The notes beneath the pieces are model-generated. The model did no database searches, was not told where the DNA came from, and saw only the letters and a list, made by a program, of their open reading frames with translations. Shown one piece after another: positions 3,115 to 10,643 of a DNA stretch of 10,643 nt. The number at the start of each line of letters is the position of its first letter. Position 1 is the stretch's first letter. Made by a program: the position numbers and the translations under genes. The stretch is from a virus (lineage: Duplodnaviria; Heunggongvirae; Uroviricota; Caudoviricetes): IMG/VR virus record IMGVR_UViG_2548876868_000025; one strand, 5' to 3'.

Positions 3115-3320
3115 TATTCGCCCCCATAATTTTTGTGCATCCCAAGCGCCGCAAGTAAATAAGATCGCACAAGTGAACCTATCGACGGCTCCGGCGTCAT
3201 CAGCGGATCCAGTCCAGCCGCAACGCCAGCTTCATAGTTTTTTTTGTGGCGCTGCTTGAGCACCTCCACGATTTCGGGGCTTATGTACACCGAAACACCG
3301 CCTTTTTTCTCTTCAGCCAT
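3114..3320 (-). CDS. small protein (68 aa) translationally coupled to the capsid gene; possible ribbon-helix-helix fold, or a small scaffold-like factor
   Basis: TAATG stop/start overlap with the capsid gene. SD-like AGAGGAA upstream of the ATG at 3320. VSVYISPEIVEVLKQ resembles an RHH beta-strand plus helix; function unassigned. Confidence 0.5.
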   Translation of the reverse strand: MAEEKKGGVSVYISPEIVEVLKQRHKKNYEAGVAAGLDPLMTPEPSIGSLVRSYLLAALGMHKNYGGE

Positions 3321-3349
3321 AGTAAGAAATTCCTCTTCGACTAAAAAAA

Positions 3350-3410
3350 TTATAACTGGATGTTTATCCAGTCCTGATTATAATCAGAATTGCATTTTAT
3401 GCAATGATAT
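3350..3410 (-). promoter_or_regulatory. Candidate sigma70 promoter of the capsid operon, overlapped by three palindromes
   Basis: On the minus strand: TTGCAT, a 16-bp spacer, then TATAAT. Palindromes TTGCATtttATGCAA (3391-3405), CTGATTATAATCAG (3374-3387, containing the -10) and CTGGATgtttATCCAG (3356-3371, near the expected transcription start). Confidence 0.5.
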
Positions 3411-3485
3411 TGAGTTATGTTGCAAATTATGAAATGATTATCCCGATCACGAACGCCAGTGCATCCAAAAACCTCATATGCAAAA

Positions 3486-3523
3486 GCCCGATAAGAACCC
3501 TCTGACCTTATCGGGCTTTTTTT
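3486..3523 (+). terminator. rho-independent terminator oriented on the plus strand, with no obvious plus-strand gene upstream
   Basis: Perfect 10-bp stem GCCCGATAAG / CTTATCGGGC (3486-3495 and 3507-3516) followed by 7 T (3517-3523). Confidence 0.6.
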
Positions 3524-3529
3524 GGGCGC

Positions 3530-3551
3530 AAAAAAGCCGGATTGCTCCGGC
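3530..3551 (-). terminator. rho-independent terminator after the 74-aa gene
   Basis: Hairpin GCCGGAttgcTCCGGC (3536-3551) followed on the minus strand by a 6-U run (3530-3535). Confidence 0.7.
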
Positions 3552-3571
3552 TATGTGTGCTGTGTGCTGGC

Positions 3572-3796
3572 TCAGTCTCTGATCTCTTTCAGAAATTCTA
3601 TCAATGCATCTATCTGTTCAGGATTTACCGCCAGCATTTCACCGGATAGAGCACATCTCACAAAACCATGCTGATCCTTTTCAATCAGTGCGCCCGTCTC
3701 CAGGAATGCGCGGTAATCATTGATGCTCATCGTCTCCATGTTGTCAGCATGGTATTTATCACGCTGTTTTAATATCTCATCAAATTTCATCGGCAT
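3572..3796 (-). CDS. hypothetical protein (74 aa), stand-alone transcription unit
   Basis: ATG at 3796 with a GAGGAA SD 9 nt upstream. Bracketed by terminators at 3893-3915 (upstream) and 3530-3551 (downstream). No family recognised. Confidence 0.55.
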   Translation of the reverse strand: MPMKFDEILKQRDKYHADNMETMSINDYRAFLETGALIEKDQHGFVRCALSGEMLAVNPEQIDALIEFLKEIRD

Positions 3797-3892
3797 TGTT
3801 TTTTTCCTCTGTTGTGTCTGTTTGTTTCAGATAGTAACTATGCCTGACCGTGACGAAAACCCGGTAATGCGCCATACCGTTTCAACTGGTGC

Positions 3893-3915
3893 AAAAAAAG
3901 CCGGATTTCTCCGGC
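3893..3915 (-). terminator. rho-independent terminator after the 90-aa gene
   Basis: Hairpin GCCGGAtttcTCCGGC (3900-3915) followed on the minus strand by a 7-U run (3893-3899); the stop codon is at 3923-3925. Confidence 0.7.
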
Positions 3916-3922
3916 TGTTTGA

Positions 3923-4195
3923 TTAGCTGTCTTGGTAATTGCGCCATATTTCATCACCAGCACCATCTATACCCATTTCGGCATAAGTGCGATCGACTGC
4001 CTTTTTCAGGTCTCCGAAATTATCCGGCGGCTCCGGTGCCCTCTGTGCCTTCCTTGAACATTCCAGCCGTCGCATCGTGATGTGATGCCGTTCCTTGTCT
4101 GTCTCCACCAGCTGCATGACTTCACCCCATCGCGCCGCCGCCCTCCGGTAAAAGCCTTTCGCCTCCAGTTCCTCCGCTATGCGGTCATGTACCAT
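3923..4195 (-). CDS. hypothetical small protein (90 aa); weak resemblance to ANR-type small regulators
   Basis: ATG at 4195 preceded by GAGGGGG. The longer 130-aa reading frame would overlap ssb, so the short start is preferred. Motif IAEELEAKGFYRRAAARWGEV resembles an ANR-like helical pattern, unverified. Confidence 0.45.
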   Translation of the reverse strand: MVHDRIAEELEAKGFYRRAAARWGEVMQLVETDKERHHITMRRLECSRKAQRAPEPPDNFGDLKKAVDRTYAEMGIDGAGDEIWRNYQDS

Positions 4196-4205
4196 CGTCA
4201 CCCCC

Positions 4206-4616
4206 TCAGAACGAAATATCATCACCGTAAGGGTCATCGCCTCCCGCTGGTGGCTGATTACCCTGTGTGCCTGTGGTTTTGCGTCTGTTCCCGCCTGGAC
4301 GTGCCGCGCGGGCACTGATTACGCTGTCTGCGATAACCTGCCAGCCCTGCCGCGTTTCTCCGTTCTGTCCGGTCCACTGGCTTACCTGCATCGTGCCGGA
4401 TACGCTGGCAACATCGCCTTTTTGATGTTTAGCCAGGAAGTCGGCCTGTTTGCCAAATGCGATGACCGATAACCATAACGTCGCCTGTCCGTCCTGTGCC
4501 TGGCTGCATGGCAAAGATACCGCCATACGCGCCAGCGTCATCGGTGTGCCCTTGCTGGTCTGTTTTACCTGCGGGTCGTCCACCAGCCGCCCGTAAGCGG
4601 CTATCTGTGCCGTCAT
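4206..4616 (-). CDS. ssb: single-stranded DNA-binding protein
   Basis: 136 aa. OB-fold-like core (LWLSVIAFGKQADFLAKHQKGDVASVSGTMQVSQWTGQNGETRQGWQVIADSV), Gly/Pro/Gln-rich linker and acidic C-terminal tail DDPYGDDISF, comparable to the E. coli SSB DDDIPF tail. ATGA overlap with the upstream gene. Confidence 0.85.
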   Translation of the reverse strand: MTAQIAAYGRLVDDPQVKQTSKGTPMTLARMAVSLPCSQAQDGQATLWLSVIAFGKQADFLAKHQKGDVASVSGTMQVSQWTGQNGETRQGWQVIADSVISARAARPGGNRRKTTGTQGNQPPAGGDDPYGDDISF

Positions 4617-4882: not shown

Positions 4883-5068
4883 TTTTACGCCTCACTTTTT
4901 AAAGCGTCTCGCTTCGTCTCACTTGAGATTTTTGTGTTTTGTATGCGCATGTTTCATAAGTGTTTTTTTTACGCCTCACTTTTGAGCATGTATACAGGTG
5001 AGAAAGTGAGCAATCGTGTTAATATTTTGTAAAAACCTCACCATTACTCACTTTTGCTACTCACTTTT
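4878..5068. repeat. Iteron array (candidate replication origin) immediately 3' of the replicase gene
   Basis: CTCACTTTT direct repeats at 4878, 4891, 4975, 5047 and 5060, a variant CTCACTTGA at 4918 and an inverted copy in GTGAGAAAGTGAG (4998-5010). An AT-rich tract lies between them (4921-4970). Confidence 0.6.
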
Positions 5069-6465
5069 TACAGTGGTCCTACATCATCACCATCAATGTA
5101 AATCACGGCGTCTTTTTCCAGTTTGGCTAACCATCGCCGCATATTTTTCACGTCATACCCAAGCCGTTTCATGTCATCACGTAACAGCGGGATCGTGCAC
5201 TTGTCGCCGTTCTGTGTACGTGAACGGATGCACCCCCATAGCGCGGTATGGTTTTCCGTCTTGTTGCCTGCCTCCTCGATGCGCTCCAGTTCAACGGGAG
5301 GGCGCGGCTTATCCACCACCACCAGCGACGTGATTAACTCCCCGTCAGCGTCGGTAAAAAGCTCCACCACGCGTAAGTCATATGCGGCTTCTTTGAGTTC
5401 CTCCGCGTCCTTCATTTTGGTGCATGAGATAACCAGCGCTTCGCTGCCTGCGTCCTCCCTGCGTATCCGGTATTCAGCGTCCAGTGATGCACGAAATGCA
5501 CTGGAACCACGCGCCCCCTTTGTTTCATCCTTGCCGGAATGGTGAACCACCAGCACCGTGGCCCCTGTGCGCCGTTTCAGTTCGTCACAACCACGGATAA
5601 ACGCCCCCATATCACGGGAATCATTTTCATCATTACCACCAAAGCAACGCGCCAGCGTATCCAGAATAATCATGCGTACAGGTTTACCCGTTTCCCGCTC
5701 CACCTGACGGGCAGCGATAACCATTTCATCAACATCAAACGGGGCAGCCGGAAAGATGGGACGGTTTACCAGGTACAGATTTTTCACCTGCTCACCGTGC
5801 ACAACTTCCCACGCTCTCACGCGACGCGGTACACCAATACCGCCTTCACCAACCACATAGAGGACCGCACCATGTGCAACCCTGCGGCCTCCCCAGTGGC
5901 GACCCGTTGAAACGTGACACGCCCACGAACCAGCAAGGAACGACTTATATGAACCGCTCGCCCCGTATATGCTGCATAGCGACGATGCCGGAATAATCCC
6001 CTTTACCACGTAATCTAATTGCGTGTCGTATCCGGCAGATCCAACGCTCATCGGTAGCGTGGTTTTTCGCTGGTGGCTCAGGCTTTCCCCGCGTTCCCAT
6101 GTCTCCCTAAGCCGTGGAAGCTGGTCGCTCCATTCCTCCAGCAATTCGAAATTTTCAGAAAACAGGCGCGCTTCCTGGACTCCTGCGATTGCCAGTTTCG
6201 TGGCGATGGTTAACAACTGCACTTCGTCAATATTTCCGGCACGTATCACTTTCGCCCTGAACCGACCTTTATCAACAATCTGCAAGTTATCCAGTTCGCT
6301 TAACTGATAACGCCCCAGGTAAACGGGAGGGACTGGATCGCCTGCTTTTTTGGCCTGTGCAATGATGTAGTGCTCTGCAAATGAGTGAGCATTATCACCC
6401 GCAAAAATAACCGCTTCGGTGTGTTTATCTTTCGGTAACAGTTTTACATTCGGTGCCAGTTTCAT
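5068..6465 (-). CDS. replication protein with a RecA-like/AAA ATPase core (primase-helicase-type replicase of P4/PICI-like elements)
   Basis: 465 aa. Walker A GASGSYKS and Walker B-like MIILDT followed by an acidic stretch; unassigned N-terminal domain of about 150 aa; C-terminal DNA-binding-like tail. ATGA overlap with the upstream gene. Confidence 0.85.
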   Translation of the reverse strand: MKLAPNVKLLPKDKHTEAVIFAGDNAHSFAEHYIIAQAKKAGDPVPPVYLGRYQLSELDNLQIVDKGRFRAKVIRAGNIDEVQLLTIATKLAIAGVQEARLFSENFELLEEWSDQLPRLRETWERGESLSHQRKTTLPMSVGSAGYDTQLDYVVKGIIPASSLCSIYGASGSYKSFLAGSWACHVSTGRHWGGRRVAHGAVLYVVGEGGIGVPRRVRAWEVVHGEQVKNLYLVNRPIFPAAPFDVDEMVIAARQVERETGKPVRMIILDTLARCFGGNDENDSRDMGAFIRGCDELKRRTGATVLVVHHSGKDETKGARGSSAFRASLDAEYRIRREDAGSEALVISCTKMKDAEELKEAAYDLRVVELFTDADGELITSLVVVDKPRPPVELERIEEAGNKTENHTALWGCIRSRTQNGDKCTIPLLRDDMKRLGYDVKNMRRWLAKLEKDAVIYIDGDDVGPL

Positions 6466-6761
6466 TTTTTACCCCTGAATCCGTTAATCATGGTTTTCAG
6501 CTTCTGGATGTTTGCCCGTGCCCTGGCGTTGCTGGTGGGCACGTTATGCGGCGCGGTCTGTACCAGAGAAAAATCACGCCGGAACTGATAAACAGGCATC
6601 ACGCAATCATATTCGTAACCTTCACGGCGGTAAGTTACGCACCGTCCCGCCACGCCCTTAATCATTACCGTGCCGCCGTACTGGTCGCGGTAAATATCAC
6701 CGCGCGTAAATTTAGGGTGAGTGTTGCCACTGGCAGTTAAGCCAGAATATTTAAGTTTCAT
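6462..6761 (-). CDS. hypothetical protein (99 aa), coupled to the replicase gene
   Basis: ATG at 6761; stop overlaps the replicase start (ATGA). Beta-rich-looking sequence; no family recognised. Confidence 0.55.
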   Translation of the reverse strand: MKLKYSGLTASGNTHPKFTRGDIYRDQYGGTVMIKGVAGRCVTYRREGYEYDCVMPVYQFRRDFSLVQTAPHNVPTSNARARANIQKLKTMINGFRGKK

Positions 6762-7365: not shown

Positions 7366-7528
7366 AGGTTTTCCCCTGACGAATACGGGCGACAAAAATC
7401 AGATGTGCGTGCGGCAACCTGGCGCGGGCTTCGCGTTCAGTGGCTGCGGTAACGGTGTAAATATCAATGCTGCTGTGGTGGCACTGCATAAAGCGCCAGA
7501 CAAAGTAAGGGCGTGCGAATACAGCCAT
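7355..7528 (-). CDS. Icd-like small protein, copy B (57 aa)
   Basis: ATG at 7528 with GGAG 8 nt upstream. FVWRF...TEREARARLP...FVARIRQG pattern, paralogous to copy A; TEREAR motif recalled as typical of P4-type Icd-like proteins. A longer in-frame reading from 7822 cannot be excluded. Confidence 0.55.
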   Translation of the reverse strand: MAVFARPYFVWRFMQCHHSSIDIYTVTAATEREARARLPHAHLIFVARIRQGKTYAQ

Positions 7529-7814
7529 GTGAAAGGCTCCCAGATGAAATTTAAGGAGTCTCGCTACTACGCTGTCAAACATGGTGGCGAGACGTAACAG
7601 GGTTGACAGACTGGTCATCTGGAAACCAGCGAGCGCAAAGGCTCCCCCGTTACGCCCCGCCATAATGCGGGTATGGGTAGGTTTACGGACACAAAAAAAC
7701 CGCTTATCGGATATGGGCGGCTGTCCGCCAGATGTATTCAGGCTGTCAAACCCGGTCGCCATGTGGGCGACGGGTGAAGCATACAGCCCCGTGATAATTT
7801 TTTGCAAGCGGTTT

Positions 7815-8012
7815 TTACGCATGATGTGACCCCTGACGAATACGAGCGGCAAATACAGCAACACAACCTGACGGGCAACGGCTACGCGCTTCGCGTTCCG
7901 TCCAGGCGGTTACGTGGATGATTTGAGATTCTCCGGCACTCAGGGCCAGAAAACGCCACACAAAGGCCGTTTGTGTGTGTACAAGGTGTGGTATATGATT
8001 TACGGCAACCAT
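7815..8012 (-). CDS. Icd-like small protein, copy A (65 aa)
   Basis: ATG at 8012 with GGAG 4 nt upstream. MVAVNHIPHLVHTQTAFVWRFLALS...WTEREARSRCP...VFAARIRQG aligns with copy B. Confidence 0.6.
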   Translation of the reverse strand: MVAVNHIPHLVHTQTAFVWRFLALSAGESQIIHVTAWTEREARSRCPSGCVAVFAARIRQGSHHA

Positions 8013-8697: not shown

Positions 8698-8904
8698 TTA
8701 AGCAGCCGTTACGCGCGCTTCCTGTTCGCGTTCTTTCATCCAGGCGATTACGTCATCCTCATACCATCCCCGACGGCGTAAACCAACACGAAAACCCTGC
8801 GGGAATTCTCCGGCGTTGATCATGCTTTGCAGCGTGCTGTCTGCCTTGATGTGGATAAGTTTTTTTACTTCCTGGCGAAAGATGACTTTTTTGATTGCTT
8901 CCAT
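8698..8904 (-). CDS. alpA: AlpA-family transcriptional regulator / excisionase-like protein
   Basis: 68 aa. ...STLQSMINAGEFPQGFRVGLRRRGWYEDDVIAWMKERE fits the AlpA/Vis pattern (HTH, G-FP, conserved W, C-terminal W). AAGG SD upstream. Located just downstream of int, as in P4-like and PICI elements. Confidence 0.85.
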   Translation of the reverse strand: MEAIKKVIFRQEVKKLIHIKADSTLQSMINAGEFPQGFRVGLRRRGWYEDDVIAWMKEREQEARVTAA

Positions 8905-9037: not shown

Positions 9038-9060
9038 AAAAAAAGCGGCATTTCTGCCGC
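9038..9060 (-). terminator. rho-independent terminator downstream of int and the 76-aa ORF
   Basis: Hairpin GCGGCAtttcTGCCGC (9045-9060) followed on the minus strand by a 7-U run (9038-9044). Confidence 0.65.
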
Positions 9061-9072
9061 TTTCAGGGAGTG

Positions 9073-9401: not shown

Positions 9402-10643
9402 CTACACGGCCCGAATACCCCTTTTACCACTGGCAAGGGTTACGCCCGTTGCCGCCGCCTCGACAAATTCGCCCCACCAGCGCATAAGCACAATGCGTTT
9501 TTCTATGTAGTTGCTCCGGTTGTATGCCCGTCTCACTTCGTTGGTGTCCACGTGGGCTAGTGCGGCCTCGATTACGTCCGGCTCAAATCCTTCTTCGTTC
9601 GCTGCGGTGCTGAATATGGCGCGCATACCGTGAGAAACCAGAATCCCGCCAAACCCCATCCGCCGCAATGCTGCGTTTGCGGTCTGGCTGTTCATAGGCT
9701 GCCGTGGGTCTTTCAGGCTCGGGAAAACATAATCGCGGTGGTGGCTGATTGGTTTCATGGCCTCCAGTACCGCCATGGCCTGACTACAAAGCGGGATAAC
9801 GTGATCACGCCGCATCTTCATGCGTCCGGCGGGTATCGTCCATTGTTGCGCGTCCAGGTCGATTTCTTCCCAGCGTGCTGACGATGCTTCAACCGGACGG
9901 GTTACAGTCAGTAACTGCCATTCAATCAGTAATCTGGTCTGCCGTTCTGTTGCCGATACTGATAAAGCCTGCATAAGCTCCGGCAACTGTTCGGGGCGGA
10001 TTGTTGGCATATGTTTTTTTACAGGGGAGGGGAACGCCTTACGCACATTCATAGCCGGATTGGTATCAATCAGCCCACTGTTGGCGGCGTAATCCATTAC
10101 CTCATTAATTCGCTGCAAAACCCGCTTTAGTGTTTCCAGGTTGCCACGTTCCTTGATGGGGGTAAGCACCTCAACGAACCTGCGAGCGGTCAGGGTGTCT
10201 ATTGGCGTGTTGCCGATGAACGGGAATACATATTTTTCCAGCGAACGCCAGATGTCTTTAATCGTGTTGGGGGCCAGATTCTGGCTGATTTTCACCTGGT
10301 ACCATGCCGCCGCCACATTTTCGAACGTGTTCCCTTGTCTTCGGGCCTCTGTCTCTCTTTTTTGCCTCTCGTGGTCCTGCGGGTCAGTTCCGGCACTGAT
10401 TAACGTCCTGTACTCGCTACGGCGTTTTCTGGCATCAGCCAGGGAAACATCTTCAAGCGATCCAAAACTCAGCAATATTCTTTTTTTGTCCGATGGTCGG
10501 TAGTAGGAAAATCTCCAGAGTTTTGATCCAGACGGTTTGACCAAGAGAAAAAGCCCTCCGCCGTCCTGCAGGGTGTACTCCTTTTGCGCTGGTCTGGCTG
10601 CTTTGATCTGCACTGTGGTTAATGGGTGTGTTTTTCTCGCCAT
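9402..10643 (-). CDS. int: tyrosine site-specific integrase, P4 family
   Basis: 413 aa. N-terminal arm-type DNA-binding region (LTTVQIKAARPAQKEYTLQDGGGLFLLVKPSGSKLWRFSYY) and C-terminal catalytic region with HGMRAIFST (H-x-x-R) and a tyrosine in RRAYNRSNY. The start codon is the last three bases of the window. Confidence 0.95.
   Translation of the reverse strand: MARKTHPLTTVQIKAARPAQKEYTLQDGGGLFLLVKPSGSKLWRFSYYRPSDKKRILLSFGSLEDVSLADARKRRSEYRTLISAGTDPQDHERQKRETEARRQGNTFENVAAAWYQVKISQNLAPNTIKDIWRSLEKYVFPFIGNTPIDTLTARRFVEVLTPIKERGNLETLKRVLQRINEVMDYAANSGLIDTNPAMNVRKAFPSPVKKHMPTIRPEQLPELMQALSVSATERQTRLLIEWQLLTVTRPVEASSARWEEIDLDAQQWTIPAGRMKMRRDHVIPLCSQAMAVLEAMKPISHHRDYVFPSLKDPRQPMNSQTANAALRRMGFGGILVSHGMRAIFSTAANEEGFEPDVIEAALAHVDTNEVRRAYNRSNYIEKRIVLMRWWGEFVEAAATGVTLASGKRGIRAV

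Follow-up and report, generated by a model that had tools for sequence, protein, structure and literature searches.

A conserved plus-strand terminator and a predicted small RNA unit at the border between the early and packaging genes of an E. coli phage satellite

The DNA analysed here, to which we refer as the window, is a stretch of 10,643 nucleotides (IMG/VR record IMGVR_UViG_2548876868_000025), and it is an E. coli phage satellite of the PICI type. It is 100% identical to a sequence of E. coli DEC9B, where the copy sits between tRNA-Pro and yejO; in TW14359, an island of the window type occupies the roxA-phoQ site. The element carries an integrase, an AlpA-like regulator and a replication gene with iterons, measures ~11 kb, adjoins a tRNA gene and contains packaging genes without tail or lysis genes, and in its gene layout it agrees with the phage-inducible chromosomal islands (PICIs) that Fillol-Salom et al. 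2018 (PMC6092414) reported from Gram-negative bacteria. All of its substantial genes are on the minus strand (Table 1). The region 3486-3915, on which this analysis centres, straddles the border between the early genes (replication and accessory) and the packaging operon.

Table 1. Genes, terminators and control elements of the window, in the order in which the minus strand is read.
Feature	Position	Strand	Details
Integrase	9402-10643	minus	
AlpA-like helix-turn-helix protein	8698-8904	minus	family match weak (E 0.0036)
Icd-like genes	between the AlpA-like gene and the DUF4222 gene	minus	
C4 antisense RNA	7580-7667		true C4 family member (71.6 bits, Rfam), among the Icd-like genes
DUF4222 protein	6462-6761	minus	
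RepA-type helicase	5068-6465	minus	
SSB	4206-4616	minus	
PerC-family gene	3923-4195	minus	Pfam PerC, E 1.2e-42; RefSeq CDS
Terminator after perC, upstream of the 74-aa gene	3893-3916	minus	AGCCGGAGAAATCCGGCT plus T7 at 3916-3899; copy of repeat family D1
74-aa gene	3572-3796	minus	ORF list and RefSeq CDS; closes the early/accessory block
Terminator after the 74-aa gene, end of the early block	3530-3552	minus	AGCCGGAGCAATCCGGCT plus T6 at 3552-3535; reference copy of D1
Plus-strand intrinsic terminator	3482-3523	plus	14-bp stem, 11-nt loop, T7 tail; proposed 3' end of a small RNA
Predicted non-coding RNA, ~78 nt	3445-3523	plus	predicted start, accurate to a few nt
Candidate sigma-70 promoter of the small RNA	3410-3438	plus	TTGAGT (3410-3415), 17 nt, TG-a-AATGAT (3430-3438), extended -10
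Two operator-like sites, 30 bp apart	TTGCATTTTATGCAA 3390-3404; TTGCAAATTATGAAA 3420-3434		each overlaps one candidate promoter
Best candidate promoter of the capsid/packaging operon	3377-3404	minus	TTGCAT (3404-3399), 16 nt, TATAAT (3382-3377)
Packaging block: 68-aa gene, lambda gpE-like capsid, gpD-like decoration, 137-aa protein, Nu1-like small terminase		minus	after the 251-bp gap

The 74-aa gene has its own SD sequence (GAGG at 3809-3806, 9 nt 5' of the ATG on the minus strand) and, as an earlier note on this DNA had described, is bracketed on both sides by intrinsic terminators, which a terminator scan of the minus strand recovered. The upstream hairpin folds at -12.6 kcal/mol (z -4.4) and the downstream one at -12.5 kcal/mol (z -4.7), and the two terminators are 89% identical over 28 nt, with the downstream copy as the reference; in locus L143, the 18-nt hairpins of both are identical. 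The downstream terminator is retained after the last early gene in the nine E. coli variants that we fetched. The comparison of the gene with accessory cargo agrees with its distribution, as it is optional among satellites that share the same capsid module and is absent from KGu016, STEC2018-607, IHE3034 and Nissle. Next to this same capsid module, the order is SSB-terminator in RM14516, SSB-perC-terminator in KGu016 and STEC2018-607, and SSB-perC-terminator-74aa-terminator in the window, and homology between the window and other elements breaks off at terminators (3522, 3531, 3570, 3895 and 3917). Because such intermediates exist among satellites and the breakpoints fall at terminators, the 74-aa gene behaves as a terminator-bounded cassette that is gained and lost. 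It occupies a stretch ahead of the packaging module that He et al. 2025 (bioRxiv 10.1101/2025.02.11.637232) describe as variable and where immune systems are expected. The gene is common to window-type satellites and cf-PICIs, and perC is its usual upstream partner (L003, L143, L144 and the Sakai pair pchE-ECs1589). We propose that cassettes of perC followed by the 74-aa gene are gained and lost between related satellites, probably via recombination at the repeated terminator. AlpA-type antitermination has been described (PMC7969949, PMC9371919); it is attractive as the reason for the internal terminators and stays speculative because the AlpA-like protein of the window matches its family weakly.

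The bracketing terminators had also been taken to mean that the gene is expressed independently of its neighbours, and for this part of the earlier description we found no support. A promoter scan of the minus strand at 3797-3898, 5' of the gene, found no promoter-like site, and the best match by eye in this interval (TTTTCG, 17 nt, TACTAT) reaches 7/12. In SB0258h1, the start of a 41%-identical homologue lies within perC, 10 nt before its end, so that the homologue overlaps the perC stop codon. No terminator separates the two genes and only the downstream one is retained, and we conclude from the 10-nt overlap that the homologue is co-transcribed with perC. Given this arrangement and the lack of a convincing promoter, the insulation of the 74-aa gene is lineage-specific and its independent expression is unproven. 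Expression would probably proceed via read-through of the upstream terminator or from a weak promoter.

The product, labelled in RefSeq as hypothetical protein WP_001132079.1, belongs to PHROG 1957, a family of unknown function (E 2.3e-42), and a close copy of the gene is carried by 540 of 5426 complete E. coli genomes. Its homologue in strain Sakai is ECs1589, which lies in the cf-PICI Sp7/OI-51 (EcCIEDL933), flanked by pchE (ECs1588) and the Sp7 major head gene. An exhaustive HMMER search returned 17 more distant small proteins (E ≤ 0.001), and the 16 that were aligned are 31-43% identical to the 74-aa protein. Two of the three distant relatives whose context was examined, at four places, lie between a replication gene and an HK97-type capsid gene in cf-PICIs, and a further relative from the same search follows a RepA-type helicase gene on a short contig. 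The protein has no Pfam match above threshold and no NCBIfam match; Pfam DUF7189 aligns with residues 52-73 only, at 16.5 bits (E 0.0098) against a gathering threshold of 27 bits. Remote-homology and structure prediction, which the earlier note had recommended for this protein, were run. The AlphaFold model (pLDDT 83.6) consists of two helices, a small beta hairpin and a C-terminal helix, a structure search with it gave no meaningful neighbour, and no known fold or function emerged. The PADLOC defence models match neither the protein nor those of its neighbours. The exclusion and anti-defence roles suggested for the gene stay guesses, since there is no defence-model match and no structural relative. 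'Hypothetical gene 1792', the loss of which lowers EcCIEDL933 transfer, was considered as a homologue of the 74-aa gene and rejected: no mapping connects the two, and the gene order favours a small gene between HNH and terS.

One other function can be proposed for the protein, namely that it is not cargo at all but binds DNA as a small partner of PerC and regulates the packaging operon. In support of this, the homologues always stand directly before the capsid gene and, where a perC gene is present, are paired with it, in the four places named above; in L144, homologue and perC stop codon overlap. The family profile also gives a marginal match to residues 82-121 of the nicking endonuclease N.BspD6I (E 2.3e-4 overall, 0.12 for the best stretch), which we take to be part of the DNA-recognition domain of that enzyme. 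We nevertheless consider a PerC-partner function unlikely. We regard the small 74-aa gene as genuine and as an ordinary hypothetical gene within an already known variable region; the new points are the repeated terminator on either side of it and its usual partnership with perC.

Beyond the end of the early block lies a third terminator, and it is oriented on the plus strand, as claimed, with its T7 tail on the plus side. The arms of the hairpin (3482-3495 and 3507-3520) are 100% complementary over their 14 bp, and the T run ends at 3523. The plus-strand hairpin folds at -19.5 kcal/mol (z -6.45), and none of 200 shuffled sequences was as stable. The structure is real, and the '10-bp stem' assigned to it earlier corresponds to the G+C-rich core of the 14-bp stem. 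The hairpin is a predicted Rho-independent terminator. Its loop of 11 nt is longer than usual for an intrinsic terminator; the terminator scan missed the hairpin because the loop limit of the scan is 8 nt. No plus-strand gene lies upstream, the sole plus-strand ORF (3244-3432, with a TTG start, 62 aa) being antisense to the 68-aa gene.

For comparison, we assembled 52 distinct module sequences, taken from E. coli genomes and one IMG/VR scan. Part of this set was retrieved with a pattern that covered the -10 region of the plus-strand promoter candidate, and only the ten E. coli sequences derived by BLAST are free of this bias; genome-contig scans with the 68-aa and capsid proteins gave no confirmed relatives. 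The plus-side T run measures 5-8 in 52 of 52 variants and at least 6 in 51 of them, and the A run on the opposite side of the hairpin measures 3-5 in all 52. The stem is nearly invariant in variants of the body types A and B, named for the sequence between promoter and terminator. In L109, an A-to-G change in the stem gives a G-U pair, and in the deletion variant L100 a G+C stem with a T7 tail is still formed. Among the variants, L010 and the IMG/VR loci of type C are the most distant (77% identity), and in them the hairpin GCCCGATAAG/CTTATCGGGC gives way to an unrelated one, TCCCCCGG/CCGGGGGA, with a T8 tail in the same place and the same orientation. That structure and orientation persist although the sequence does not is our strongest evidence for the need of a plus-strand terminator at this site.

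Of 5426 complete E. coli genomes, 601 (~11%) contain the 251-bp gap between the early and packaging blocks (3321-3571). Carriers of the module include O157:H7 TW14359, O103:H2 12009, O26:H11 11368, Nissle 1917 and IHE3034. In many of the more distant matches to the gap, the alignment ends at 3522, the last T of the tail, and homology with satellites without perC and the 74-aa gene ends at the same position, which indicates that the hairpin belongs to the control region of the capsid operon and not to the upstream genes. In the IHE3034/Nissle class, ~190 bp lie between the plus-strand hairpin and the minus-strand terminator, and in cf-PICIs, where perC and the 74-aa gene are present with a different capsid module, the hairpin is absent. 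The anatomy of this region, its conservation and the linkage of the hairpin to the capsid control region are established.

These observations bear on the possibility, raised in the earlier note, that the hairpin is a second, bidirectional stop; it would then serve the minus-strand early operon, and no plus-strand RNA would be made. The hairpin does lie 6 nt beyond the main minus-strand terminator; read on the minus strand, it has a folding energy of -20.9 kcal/mol and UUUU after it, and the two structures share AAAAGCC(C/G)GAT and can pair together. However, the long tail is on the plus side in every variant, the minus-side run of the unrelated replacement hairpin is only 3, the hairpin segregates with the capsid control region, at a distance from the minus-strand terminator in the IHE3034/Nissle class, and the minus strand is already served by a canonical terminator. 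We consider a second stop rather improbable, and a purely bidirectional stop fits the tail asymmetry and the linkage least well.

The alternative from the same source, that the plus-strand terminator ends a small RNA arising in the palindrome-rich region next to it, is favoured by the comparative data. The region is indeed rich in palindromes, including TTGCATTTTATGCAA and, at 3374-3387, CTGATTATAATCAG, and a further inverted repeat has its arms at 3348-3361 and 3366-3379. The site TTGCAAATTATGAAA is an imperfect second copy of the palindrome TTGCATTTTATGCAA; the operator-like pattern has 3 matches in the window versus 0.82 expected, and the sites are conserved in the variants. A plus-strand promoter-like element is located ~45 nt upstream of the stem. 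This candidate scores 8/12 plus TG, below the 9/12 cut-off of the scan, and overlaps a palindromic operator-like site. Its hexamers and 17-nt spacing are retained in all nine other fetched E. coli variants and in all three body types, in a conserved block order of operator 1, TTGA[GCT]T, 17 nt and TGaAAT[GTAC]AT; in the wider set, the conservation of the -10 is partly by construction, because the retrieval pattern covered this region. Directly after the -10, conservation collapses into the three body types, which are largely unrelated. The overlap with the operator-like site could explain part of the conservation of the plus-strand promoter. On the minus strand, the candidate capsid promoter is retained in type C variants as TTGCAA, 16 nt and TAAAAT. 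The two candidate promoters stand back-to-back, with their -35 elements 5 bp apart. The minus-strand candidate of the scan at 3433-3404 was rejected as the capsid promoter, its -10 not being conserved.

A transcript from the plus-strand promoter candidate to the terminator would have a weak stem-loop at its 5' end, followed by an A-rich linker that is single-stranded and contains AACCUCAUAUGCAAAA, and then the terminator, and is predicted to fold at -24 kcal/mol (z -5.2). Across variants, the predicted length is 70-92 nt, and every one folds into the same three parts, the short 5' stem-loop being weak and only partly conserved. RNAalifold, run on 21 variants, yielded no consensus structure, as neither the body types nor the hairpins can be aligned by sequence. 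The predicted RNA contains no SD sequence, and the A run of type A variants (5-8 nt) differs by 1-3 nt, a change that would shift any reading frame, and this excludes a coding role for the type A RNA. An 18-codon frame is present in the type C body and is unsupported. Body types A and B share the conserved linker A(A/G)CCUC(A/G)UA(U/A)G(C/A)AAAAG, and CUCAU..GCA is found again in type C.

No Rfam family matches this unit at its threshold. In an Rfam search of 3330-3570 with C4, AsxR, AgvB and 4224 other models, the best score was 18.6 bits, against thresholds of 37 or more, and a search of the whole window gave no family match in the region of the predicted RNA. A comparison with 50,697 phage records yielded one insignificant 26-nt match, an exact-sequence literature search for the hairpin gave no match, and the PICI and EHEC-sRNA literature that we checked describes no RNA at this position. 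The Hfq-crosslinking catalogue of Tree et al. 2014 (PMC4104026) is silent on the locus because it was made with strain Sakai, which does not have the module: the proL-yejO site of Sakai is empty and its roxA-phoQ site holds a cf-PICI. Three sRNAs were considered as the predicted RNA and rejected, Esr41 because it is located in SpLE1, and EcOnc33 and EcOnc48 because, their near coordinates notwithstanding, they map to Sp6, close to a gene for a neuraminic-acid deacetylase, and to the pmrD region of the core genome.

In its layout, the predicted RNA is typical of Hfq-binding sRNAs, since the stem-loop at the 5' end is followed by a single-stranded, A-rich stretch and by a terminator whose tail is U7, and EHEC prophages are known to encode sRNAs of similar size (PMC4104026). 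The ~78-nt RNA might accordingly be a trans-acting sRNA of the Hfq type, the variable body of which targets mRNAs of the helper phage or the host, for interference or host control, and the conserved linker with its recurrence in type C would fit such a role. However, duplex scans against the island transcripts and translation-start regions revealed no outstanding target. The best duplexes with translation-start regions stay within ~1 SD of background for four of the six islands tested and within ~2-3 SD for the remaining two (L048 and L084), and no target gene recurs across body types when the islands' own genes are scanned. In addition, no similarity was found among the phage records, and three largely unrelated bodies are unexpected for a conserved host target. 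A trans-acting role of this kind therefore seems unlikely to us.

It may also be asked whether the plus-strand transcript has any function. The control region is symmetric, with a palindromic TATAAT on both strands and the -35 elements back-to-back, and the body evolves freely while promoter and terminator are retained, as would be expected if the transcript were a functionless by-product of a bidirectional AT-rich region and the terminator guarded the early genes from antisense transcription. However, loss of the -35 or -10 would be an easier way to remove such a transcript, yet both are retained with the exact 17-nt spacing in all variants, and the RNA keeps within its narrow length range. 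We judge a functionless by-product to be quite unlikely.

The plus-strand terminator, then, is not the orphan that it had seemed to be; it most likely closes a previously unannotated, predicted non-coding unit of ~78 nt. This unit would begin at a sigma-70-type promoter back-to-back with the promoter of the capsid operon, and, along with the convergent minus-strand terminator at a distance of 6 nt, it would mark the boundary between the early and packaging genes. The predicted RNA lies between the T run of the early terminator (3530-3535) and the capsid promoter candidate, and it overlaps a sense transcript solely if the early terminator is read through. We infer that the promoter fires, that the RNA starts near 3445 and that the RNA acts locally. 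Transcription of the RNA would converge on the end of the early operon, the RNA would be antisense to the read-through transcript, and the RNA or its transcription may oppose early read-through into the packaging operon; the unit would also keep antisense transcription out of the early genes. A role in cis is favoured since the body varies freely while promoter and terminator are retained, there is no target on the island and there is no relative among phages. The combined picture of a ~78-nt RNA unit and a terminator-bounded 74-aa cassette at the early/packaging border, with the unit opposing read-through, is one to which we give about an even chance of being correct.

A bolder view of the same arrangement is that a conserved promoter-terminator chassis carries a fast-diversifying body, which would serve either as a regulatory RNA against helper or host transcripts or as a timing switch for the packaging operon. 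We hold the chances of this to be slim; if it were true, the diversifying RNA body would make up a module, so far undescribed, by which E. coli PICIs interfere or set timing at the level of RNA. The locus is of interest because E. coli PICIs and cf-PICIs spread virulence regulators (PerC/Pch, RgdR) and interfere with helper phages, and the PICI literature that we checked does not describe how the packaging operon is silenced and switched on. A conserved, unannotated, predicted RNA unit by the capsid promoter is a concrete and testable candidate for the control of this operon. In addition, the cassettes with repeated terminators point to a simple means of transferring accessory genes such as perC and the 74-aa gene between classical and capsid-forming satellites.

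Judged by its comparative anatomy, the unit would be an undescribed instance of a small phage- or satellite-borne RNA with its own predicted promoter and terminator. Other regulatory non-coding RNAs of phages and satellites include the C4/CI-type antisense RNAs of P1, P7, P4 and phiR73 (RF01695), and a satellite-borne non-coding transcript is known as the 'IIR' of PLE (PMC7567579). In contrast to the C4 RNAs, the predicted RNA at 3445-3523 has no match to the C4 model, and it differs from the C4/CI type in showing no complementarity to the leaders of island genes. AsxR, AgvB and Esr41 are prophage-encoded Hfq-binding sRNAs of EHEC (PMC4104026, PMC5286369), and the window RNA resembles them in being short, in the long U tail at its terminator and in its location on a mobile element of pathogenic E. 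coli; however, its matches to AsxR (18.2 bits versus a threshold of 63) and AgvB (15.8 bits versus a threshold of 56) are driven by the terminator.

The inferred mechanism has parallels in phages. OOP of lambda and sar of P22 are short phage antisense RNAs with their own promoter and intrinsic terminator, OOP overlapping the sense mRNA of cII and sar that of ant. The predicted RNA shares with them the ~70-80 nt size class, an orientation opposed to the neighbouring operon, a Rho-independent end and a position at the boundary of functional blocks. It differs in that it would overlap only transcripts that read through the early terminator, and it has no sequence or Rfam relationship with either.

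The 74-aa gene recalls the phage 'morons', which are promoter-gene-terminator cassettes inserted between phage genes. Like these, it is a single small gene with its own SD sequence and a downstream terminator, varies in presence and lies between modules; unlike these, it has no convincing promoter of its own and, in one relative, is translationally coupled to perC. Its position is also that of the variable accessory region of PICIs and cf-PICIs, and perC homologues are known accessory genes of PICIs (PMC6092414). Immune systems are expected in that region, whereas the 74-aa protein matches no defence model, and its family is also retained at this position in distant cf-PICIs at 31-43% identity.

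The terminator that recurs at the module borders of the island (see the table) is also what closes the final early gene of related satellites, and it may serve as a recombination joint in module exchange. At the end of the early block, a minus-strand terminator stands next to the plus-strand terminator that is the proposed 3' end of a small non-coding RNA. A complementarity of 92% links the plus-strand terminator, through its 3' arm and T run, with the A run and 5' arm of its minus-strand neighbour, so that an alternative hairpin across both terminators could form in read-through RNA. The two elements lie further apart in strain IHE3034 (locus L002, 4223-4415) and likewise in Nissle (L008), where about 190 bp of extra sequence, containing ATGATGATGATGA and a G-rich stretch, separates the plus-strand hairpin from the minus-strand terminator. 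A 42-aa ORF in the RefSeq annotation overlaps the end of perC and crosses the perC terminator; in other genomes this stretch is annotated as a frameshifted 'trigger factor', and the ORF is probably a spurious call.

Another hairpin (window 3343-3373) is located at the extreme start of the predicted leader of the capsid operon, where it could act as an attenuator or operator; the type C variants lack it; type C is the most diverged of the three RNA body types. The predicted RNA of type C carries at its 5' start an 18-codon frame, GTG GTT TTA ... TGA (L010, 1617-1673, plus strand; also the IMG/VR loci L027, L030, L084 and L095), the putative product of which is a hydrophobic peptide. This frame is without an SD, and three of its six between-variant differences are synonymous, a sample too small for judgement.

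In the packaging block, the 137-aa protein belongs to PHROG 1999 and also matches the C-terminal part of the head-maturation-protease family PHROG 53 (E 1.9e-8, profile positions 495-566), which suggests that it has a scaffold-like domain but no protease. Directly downstream of the RepA helicase gene, TTTTACGCCTCACTTTT is present in three copies that are probably iterons of a replication origin.

Coordinates of the predicted features in the window
Feature	Window position	Strand	Details
Repeated terminator AAAAAAGCCGGATT.CTCCGGC, four copies	1259-1286, 3530-3557, 3894-3921, 9039-9066		island module borders
137-aa protein	1286-1699	-
Hairpin ACUGGAU-AAAC-AUCCAGU, then UAUAAUUUUUUU	3343-3373	-	-9.8 kcal/mol, z -3.7
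Complementary arms of the plus/minus terminator pair	3510-3542
42-aa ORF	3838-3966	-
TTTTACGCCTCACTTTT copies	4883-5068		84-85 bp apart
RepA helicase gene	5068-6465	-
DUF4222 protein, 99 aa	6462-6761	-	RGD = residues 20-22
Direct repeats, two pairs	7373-7454 and 7830-7914		24 nt (92%), 30 nt (77%); spacing ~458 bp
C4 antisense RNA, full-length	7580-7667	-	71.6 bits, threshold 45 (Rfam)
isrK-like stretch	7693-7771	-	Rfam
a1/b1 target element of C4	7735-7784	-	45.7 bits, slightly below threshold 46.7 (Rfam)

The roxA-phoQ attachment site is occupied by a capsid-forming PICI in Sakai (L138, 1594711-1610171) and by a classical PICI of the lambda-capsid type in TW14359 (L142); because the occupant differs between these two strains, O157:H7 lineages differ in the satellite that they carry. 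In the window, the 99-aa DUF4222 protein corresponds to RgdR (ECs1581), a regulator of type III secretion (Flockhart et al. 2012, PMC3378721). The paired direct repeats point to a tandem duplication within the C4/Icd-like region, and the C4 antisense RNA, its target element and the isrK-like stretch (window 7580-7784, minus strand) point to an RNA immunity of the P1/P4 type adjoining Icd-like genes.
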